Source: a virus (lineage: Duplodnaviria > Heunggongvirae > Uroviricota > Caudoviricetes). Taken from it: DNA of 25,079 bases. The DNA is taken from the IMG/VR virus record IMGVR_UViG_2671180296_000013, positions 1 through 25,079 of that record. The stretch is one strand, 5' to 3'. Position numbers and translations under genes: made by a program. This document shows positions 1 through 896 of this stretch, in pieces. The notes below the pieces were generated by a model. It ran no database searches. It had not been told where the DNA came from and saw only the letters and a program-made list of their open reading frames with translations. How positions within the stretch are numbered: position 1 is the first letter of the stretch; each line of letters begins with the position of its first letter.

Positions 1-339
1 TTACGACCCAGCCATGGGGAAAGGTCTTTCAGGCATGGCACGTCCCGAATCGTCGCCTCCACGTGAGACTTCAAAATCTTCAGCGGCAGAATCCGTAGGC
101 TGAAAAAGCAGACTGTTTCGGGATTTATGCTCAATAAAATACCCGACCACCCCCAGCAACATCTTTGTATAGCCAACACGGGCAGATTTAATCAGATTAA
201 CAGTGCGGATCTGATCATTCCCCATGCTGTTCATGATGGCGATCTGGAATGGCAGCGTTTTCCATTCTCCCTCACCATATGAAGATTCTTTAGGCAGATA
301 ATAATTTTGATCAGCCCATTCAACTGGCGTCACCGGCAA
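1..339 (-). pseudogene. Terminase large subunit (lambda gpA-like), 5' portion; reading frame breaks near 60-70 and similarity continues in another frame off the window edge
   Basis: ORF translation PVEWADQNYYLPKE...VGYTKMLLGVVGYFIEHK matches my memory of lambda gpA N-terminal region. The track frame ends at a stop at 1-3, but by hand a second minus frame over 1-66 reads SHVEATIRDVPCLKDLSPWLGR, which resembles the next gpA segment. The annotated M at 339 is a TTG; the frame stays open upstream to a stop at 379-381. Confidence 0.6.
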
Positions 340-386
340 TGCCCTTATCAGGGGCCTGTAATGCTGTTGTGACAGCGCTCATCATA

Positions 387-896
387 TTATTCAGTTGTTG
401 CTCTGATATATTCATCGAGTAAATCCGGTAATTTATCCCCCGCCCGCGCACACTGATTTGCCCCCTTCGCAATAAGGGTTTTCAGATGGTCAAGATGGCG
501 CGGTGTTAAATCAGGAAACTGTCGCTGCATGGATAAAGGGATGGAATCAAGCGTACTGGATAACGCCATTGCCAGCTTACTGAGGGCAAAAATACAGAAC
601 CCGGTGTCAATAAGTTTTCCTTTTGACACCCTCATTTTTTAACTGCTGTGTAACAGCCTGTTCTGCTGTCAGTTCCCATCTGGCAATAAGCAATTTCTCC
701 TCATAGTCGTCTTCGCTATCGCCATCAGGCACATCGTTTTTACTTCTCCTCAGATACGATATGTAAAAATCGCCGCCAGGCATCCAGATCCAGTTGCCCT
801 CTCTTATTCGATATCGGGGCACCCCGGCAATTTCTGCAATCTGCGAAGCTGGCGATCGGTCAGACTTAAATGCCTGGCAACTTCAGTCTGCGTAGC
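387..896 (-). pseudogene. Terminase small subunit (lambda Nu1-like), split over three reading frames
   Basis: C-terminal ORF 387..635 (DTGFCIFALSKL...LPDLLDEYI) resembles the Nu1 C-terminus. The middle segment is in the frame of ORF 607..822, and an HTH-like N-terminal segment (TQTEVARHLSLTDRQLRRL) is in a third frame from a GTG near 896. Frame changes fall in A-rich runs near 610-640 and near 800-830. Confidence 0.5.

Follow-up and report, generated by a model that had tools for sequence, protein, structure and literature searches.

Frameshifted lambda-type terminase genes in a Rac-like prophage of Escherichia coli FE95160 are almost certainly consensus errors at a contig end

The window, that is, the whole stretch of 25,079 nt of tailed-phage DNA analysed here, carries a lambdoid prophage whose packaging genes lie at its very beginning, followed inward by an insertion sequence in the lysis region, a toxin gene pair, an adhesin gene, and replication and recombination genes. 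Among RefSeq complete E. coli genomes, the nearest DNA relative for the packaging end was found in strain GB089 (NZ_CP013663), which matches window positions 1–1200 at 98.5% over 1,188 bases and is annotated with an intact "terminase small subunit" (169 aa) overlapping a "phage terminase large subunit family protein" (642 aa). The features on which the analysis rests are the following, contig 26 being a second contig of the assembly from which the window derives.

1 to 415, minus strand: 5′ part (about 138 codons) of the gene for a large terminase subunit of the lambda gpA type, which continues past the window (tblastn, Pfam, contig 26)
387 to 899, minus strand: lambda Nu1-type terminase small subunit gene (alignments, Phage_Nu1 match; true length 510 nt, 169 aa)
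900 to 1160, minus strand: non-coding cos region, with the highest density of apparent errors (alignment to GB089 and to lambda nt 1–260)
1091 to 1103, minus strand: cosN cohesive-end sequence, reading GGGCCGGCGACCT (13 nt) in the window
1303 to 1516, plus strand: DUF3950 gene of the YlcI/YnfO family, not related to packaging, its frame broken by an extra C at 1372
1707 (T) and 1860 (C), no strand assigned: the two innermost extra bases (alignment to contig 26)
3550 to 5675, no strand assigned: ISEc62 (IS21 family), with istA at 4401–5573 and istB at 3607–4404, flanked by CTCAG as a 5-bp target duplication
7430 to 7852, minus strand: subtilase-family AB5 B subunit gene (141 aa)
7920 to 8645, minus strand: pertussis-toxin-S1/scabin-like ADP-ribosyltransferase gene (241 aa)
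10948 to 11100, minus strand: hokD, 100% identical to the OkiPb01695 copy
11421 to 12179, minus strand: paa adhesin gene, 100% identical to the OkiPb01695 copy

ISEc62 resides in an antirepressor-like gene (P22_AR_N) that is situated between those for the M15 endolysin (6332–6715) and Rz, and it disrupts the late operon at a point upstream of Rz, cos, and the terminase genes; the truncated antirepressor-like ORF (5647–6120) is specific to the lineage of the window. The same insertion is present in GCA_020145685.1, in two ENA metagenome scaffolds, and in the Logan assembly of SRR29147792, and because it is common to independent assemblies it is real. An artificial joining of two sequences at the insertion element, a possibility raised by an ISEc62 copy in the lysozyme gene of the H111 prophage, was rejected since the CTCAG duplication flanks the element and the insertion recurs in independent assemblies. 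Further inward, the pertussis-like AB5 pair (7430–8645) is located between a Q-like DUF1133 gene and the holin genes and is 99–100% identical to the OkiPb01695 copies. The Stx genes of Stx phages occupy that same position between the Q region and the holins. The hokD and paa genes (10948–12179) lie between the replication genes and the Q region. On the plus strand, the early-left operon (19349–23118) encodes a RecE-family exonuclease (677 aa) directly followed by lambda-type Gam, Bet, and Exo, constituting two adjoining recombination modules.

On the minus strand, the Nu1 gene starts with GTG at 899–897 and ends with a stop codon at 389–387. In between, its frame is split by three +1 insertions, each contributing an extra C, at 822 (CCC to CCCC), 773 (C to CC), and 629 (CC to CCC). 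Similarity to the intact 169-aa homologue therefore spans four segments in three frames, the last of which shares the frame of the GTG again since the insertions sum to +3. The list of open reading frames contains no long ORF within 1–900 and holds the fragments 804–914, 607–822, 387–635, and 1–339 only. Exact-protein look-up of the fragments 387–635, 1–339, and 607–822 returned none on record, probably because the gene caller chose other starts. Fragment 387–635 nevertheless matches the Pfam family Phage_Nu1 (PF07471) with 50.4 bits at a cutoff of 30, as compared with 67.9 bits for the intact GB089 Nu1, which is the same as the contig 26 copy; the match is restricted to profile positions 62–163. 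The intact homologue shares 46% identity with lambda Nu1 over its C-terminal 92 residues (lambda residues 86–177; BLASTP), and BLASTP found no similarity to lambda Nu1 in the N-terminal ~70 residues, which in lambda form the DNA-binding part, a winged helix reading the R sites of cosB. The overlapping gpA gene begins with ATG at 415–413 and is split by a +1 insertion at 355 (C to CC) and by a 2-base deletion (AT) at 72/73, which adjoins an A4 run and is not a change in homopolymer length. Residues 1–21, 20–114, and 114–138 of the GB089 large subunit map to three frames of the window by tblastn, and the shifted frame terminates in TAA at 3–1. Fragment 1–339 matches GpA_ATPase with 53.5 bits (cutoff 25.6); the intact 642-aa gpA of GB089 matches both GpA_ATPase (PF05876; 186.8 bits) and GpA_nuclease (PF20454; 242.5 bits) as one continuous protein and is 66% identical to lambda gpA (NC_001416) over 639 residues. 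A gpA fragment of 110 aa is listed for L012.

A first-pass annotation made from the bare sequence had assigned both genes to the lambda Nu1 and gpA families, and this assignment is borne out by the Pfam matches and the lambda alignments. It had also reported frame changes, which tblastn with the GB089 proteins and base-by-base alignment establish at about the places given. For Nu1, the three frames and the shifts placed within 800–830 and 610–640 stand (822 and 629), and the one at 773 had been missed. For gpA, the stop at positions 1–3 was found as proposed; the switch described as lying near 66 is real but is the 2-base deletion at 72/73, and the insertion at 355 had gone unnoticed. The further statement that the changes fall in short homopolymer runs holds in part, half of the +1 insertions having struck bases that are singletons in the reference. 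The indels outside the terminase genes, in cos and at 1372, 1707, and 1860, had not been described.

It is in non-coding DNA that the indels are densest. Twelve of them fall within 948–1099 of the cos region, two inside cosN, and one more is found at 901. The cohesive end of lambda, GB089, and contig 26 is GGGCGGCGACCT (12 nt); the window has an extra base at 1099, so that the exact 12-mer is not found in the window, whereas it is present in contig 26. Two further extra bases lie within 45 nt after the cohesive end. The region upstream of Nu1 reproduces the first ~49 nt of lambda exactly in GB089 and the first 45 nt exactly in contig 26; cosB differs from that of lambda in the alignment, without detectable similarity. 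The identity of the disrupted DUF3950 gene is given by the Pfam DUF3950 match of the intact GB089 copy. A 27-mer carrying some of the indels (window 980–1006) had no match in GTDB species-representative genomes or in IMG/VR.

The spectrum of these changes is narrow. Between window positions 1 and 1491, 19 indel events and no substitution separate the window from GB089. Over 1–1860, 18 of the 21 events are +1 insertions, accompanied by one 1-base deletion and one 2-base deletion, and 17 of the 18 insertions duplicate the neighbouring base. Counted on one strand, C was inserted in eleven cases and G in two (binomial p = 0.02). The rate of insertion per base is flat, at 0.8–1.3%, across reference run lengths of 1 to 5: nine of the 18 insertions strike singleton bases, where a run exists solely through the extra base, and the 18 runs of at least five bases took one insertion and one deletion only. 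Raw PacBio CLR errors are mostly single-base insertions. Close relatives encode Nu1 and gpA as single continuous ORFs, and the RefSeq complete E. coli genomes, with 1,970 places matching segment 30–115 and 1,810 matching 600–850, contain neither the gpA deletion nor any of the three Nu1 insertions. The best identities in that set (98.5% for 1–1200, 97.7% for 30–115, and 98.8% for 600–850) are the values expected if indels alone differ.

The indels cease after 1860, and all events on the window side are thus confined to the 1.9 kb next to the contig end. The GB089 Rz and 74-aa genes are intact in the window, as are 31 of the 32 matching genes of OkiPb01695, the closest relative. Between 6333 and 25079, the comparison with OkiPb01695 yields 157 substitutions versus 13 gap columns in 12 openings, and isolated single-base indels number two only, at 15498 and 23446. 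The one disrupted gene encodes a DUF1187 protein (23338–23524, plus strand) and is split by an extra G at 23446 (GGG to GGGG), which none of the 1,922 RefSeq complete E. coli records with the segment carries. This extra G probably reflects a lone PacBio insertion error, here away from the contig ends; a private mutation would be the alternative.

The position of the indels gains its meaning from the origin of the sequence. Over 13,260 nt, the window and the end of contig LFZI01000027.1 (contig 27; 221,743 nt) of assembly GCA_001264195.1 are 100.000% identical, and window position 1 corresponds to contig position 48, which places the window at the extreme end of a draft contig. Accession LFZI00000000 belongs to E. 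coli FE95160, a bovine STEC/ETEC hybrid, which was sequenced on a PacBio RS instrument with P4/C2 chemistry by CLR long reads only (PMC4551483). The reads were corrected with the HGAP pre-assembly step and PacBioToCA and assembled with Celera Assembler 7.0 into 43 contigs; the word Quiver is absent from the genome paper, which mentions neither consensus polishing nor short reads (PMC4551483). Contig 27 ends within the cos-terminase segment, which is multi-copy in many RefSeq complete E. coli genomes and occurs in up to eight places per genome. Independent assemblies of the same lineage, based on short reads by inference, stop within a few hundred bases downstream of the Rz gene: in window coordinates, L006 (GCA_020145685.1) ends at 2975, L007 at ~2346, and L009 at 2432. 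Such breaks near the cos-terminase segment are consistent with its being a repeat common to several prophages in these strains.

A control is provided by the assembly itself. Contig LFZI01000026.1 (contig 26; 7,569 nt) overlaps positions 1–4358 of contig 27 with no mismatch and 22 gap columns, the overlap running from inside the insertion element (762 nt of the ISEc62 copy) across its junction through Rz and cos into gpA. Twenty-one indel events, at contig 27 positions 119–1907, are the same as those seen against GB089, and contig 26 is free of all 21. It encodes an intact Nu1 of 169 aa, an intact gpA of 642 aa, and an intact DUF3950 protein of 70 aa, all three identical to the GB089 proteins (Nu1 to WP_000235436.1), as well as gpW and the start of the portal protein. 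Past window position 1860, the two contigs agree perfectly up to window position 4200, where the single remaining event is found 111 nt from the end of contig 26 itself: contig 26 reads TTT and the window TTTT, inside istB. Here the window is correct, since istB is intact in it and two independent assemblies of the lineage, L006 and L009, agree with it without gaps; the former differs by one mismatch and no gap over window positions 2975–16120 (13,146 nt), and the latter is 100% identical over 4,645 nt. Each contig is therefore faulty only near its own end, which demonstrates a general unreliability of contig ends in this assembly.

Taken together, the absence of substitutions, the flat relation to run length, the clustering at the contig end, and the intact overlapping contig 26 argue that the splitting of the terminase genes is almost certainly due to consensus errors over the last ~1.9 kb of the contig and not to mutations. 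The affected sites are not gene-specific, as the densest indels lie in non-coding cos and the unrelated DUF3950 gene is hit as well. The true locus is an ordinary cos-Nu1-A module of the lambda type, intact and part of a Rac-like prophage next to ttcA; as read from contig 26, cos is followed by Nu1 (169 aa), the overlapping gpA (642 aa), W, and the portal gene. The errors may have arisen where the contig end runs into a repeat common to several lambdoid prophages: few reads would back the consensus there, coverage presumably being low, and some CLR insertions would survive and appear as doubled bases. Three points count against this explanation. The 2-base deletion at 72/73 is not a typical CLR insertion error; contig 26 is short and could strictly represent a second genomic copy; and the ISEc62 insertion is one real lesion, so that other genuine decay of the element is possible.

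In the sequence as deposited, neither terminase gene keeps its frame, and a real insertion element does sit in the late region of the prophage. These two facts speak for genuine pseudogenisation, in which frameshift mutations would have accumulated in cos and the packaging genes of a domesticated cryptic prophage while selection preserved the toxin, lysis, and immunity genes. The first-pass annotation had offered this reading next to that of homopolymer sequencing errors. Decay would hardly leave 19 indels and not one substitution within 1.5 kb: in the E. coli mutation accumulation work published by Lee et al. in PNAS in 2012, substitutions reportedly outnumber indels about tenfold and slippage climbs steeply with run length, whereas the per-base rate is flat here and the 18 long runs took two events only. 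Nor would decay account for the abrupt stop of the events 1.9 kb from the contig end, or for the absence of the tested indels from the RefSeq complete E. coli genomes. A pseudogene should be disrupted again in an independent sequence of the locus, and contig 26 has none of the 21 indels and no substitution over the 4,358 nt of overlap; a decay-like spectrum, with substitutions at least as frequent as indels and the indels in long runs, was not found either. With the locus intact in contig 26 and the spectrum free of substitutions, we consider decay very improbable. The first-pass annotation had named continuous Nu1-like and gpA-like frames restored by read-level data as evidence against decay, and contig 26 restores both at the level of the assembly. 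The contrast between broken packaging genes and intact toxin, lysis, and immunity genes that it had noticed exists, but is explained by distance from the contig end and not by selection. Its alternative of sequencing errors is upheld, with the qualification that the homopolymer label is slightly off, as singletons were struck as often per base as runs.

The intact state of contig 26 would carry less weight if the IS-Rz-cos-Nu1-A segment were duplicated in FE95160, contig 26 representing an intact copy and the end of contig 27 a decayed one. Such a duplication is in line with the multi-copy occurrence of the cos-terminase segment in many E. coli genomes, at up to eight places each, and with the short-read assemblies of the lineage breaking just before it. 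Yet both contigs contain the same junction between ISEc62 and the Rz side and do not differ at any aligned base across 4.3 kb, which would require a recent duplication followed by 21 indels without any substitution; moreover, the mirror-image defect of contig 26 at window position 4200 is what overlapping error-prone contig ends look like. This explanation is as improbable as decay. Still less credence is due to its extreme form, in which contig 27 would end in a genuine second copy of IS-Rz-cos-Nu1-A that suffered a localised burst of +1 insertions without substitutions; if true, this would imply an unknown targeted insertion mutagenesis inactivating prophage cos and terminase genes. Programmed ribosomal frameshifting or recoding, yielding full-length Nu1 and gpA from the split frames, has nothing in its favour except that some shifts lie in short C runs. 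The relatives all have single continuous ORFs, the shifted state is not conserved in RefSeq complete E. coli (segments 30–115 and 600–850), and five shifts of mixed sign in two genes, with alike indels in non-coding DNA, are unlike recoding sites, which makes this the least probable reading of all. Decay, a second copy, and recoding are all contradicted by the overlap within the assembly, by the spectrum without substitutions, and by the lack of conservation, and together they keep only a small residue of probability. Two further kinds of cause were considered and rejected: frameshift mutagens or mismatch-repair deficiency, as the events lie within 1.9 kb and show neither substitutions nor dependence on run length, and old Sanger read tails, 454 homopolymer errors, or nanopore data with failed short-read polishing, as the data are PacBio CLR only (PMC4551483).

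Consensus error at the contig end being the preferred explanation, a caution follows for unpolished drafts built from long reads only, in which the last 1–2 kb of a contig can carry ~1% insertion errors and make intact genes look like multi-frame pseudogenes. Taken at face value, the sequence would have caused an element with a pertussis-like AB5 toxin and paa to be misjudged as a "domesticated cryptic prophage"; with its packaging module intact, the element may be open to mobilisation. Three signs together are diagnostic of the artefact: many indels without substitutions in comparison with the nearest relative, a rate of insertion that does not vary with run length, and proximity to a contig end.

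Compared with the cos-nu1-A region of lambda (NC_001416, nt 1–2636), the true locus has the same cohesive end and the same order of cos, Nu1, overlapping A, W, and portal gene. It differs in the N-terminus of Nu1 and in cosB, both without detectable similarity to lambda, and in that the module resides in a Rac-like prophage integrated at ttcA. The nohA gene of Qin and the nohD gene of DLP12 in E. coli K-12 are Nu1-like genes beside lysis genes in defective lambdoid prophages, in both of which deletion has removed the packaging and head genes further downstream. In contrast to these remnants, the FE95160 locus retains the downstream gpA, W, and portal genes in contig 26, with gpA intact, and its apparent lesions are almost certainly not in the DNA. 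A close parallel is found in unpolished PacBio CLR assemblies with false frameshifted "pseudogenes", which display the same insertion-dominated indels doubling the adjacent base and the same lack of substitutions. The likeness extends to the strand-specific base bias, the clustering at contig ends, and the resolution by an overlapping contig, and nothing substantive differs between the two.
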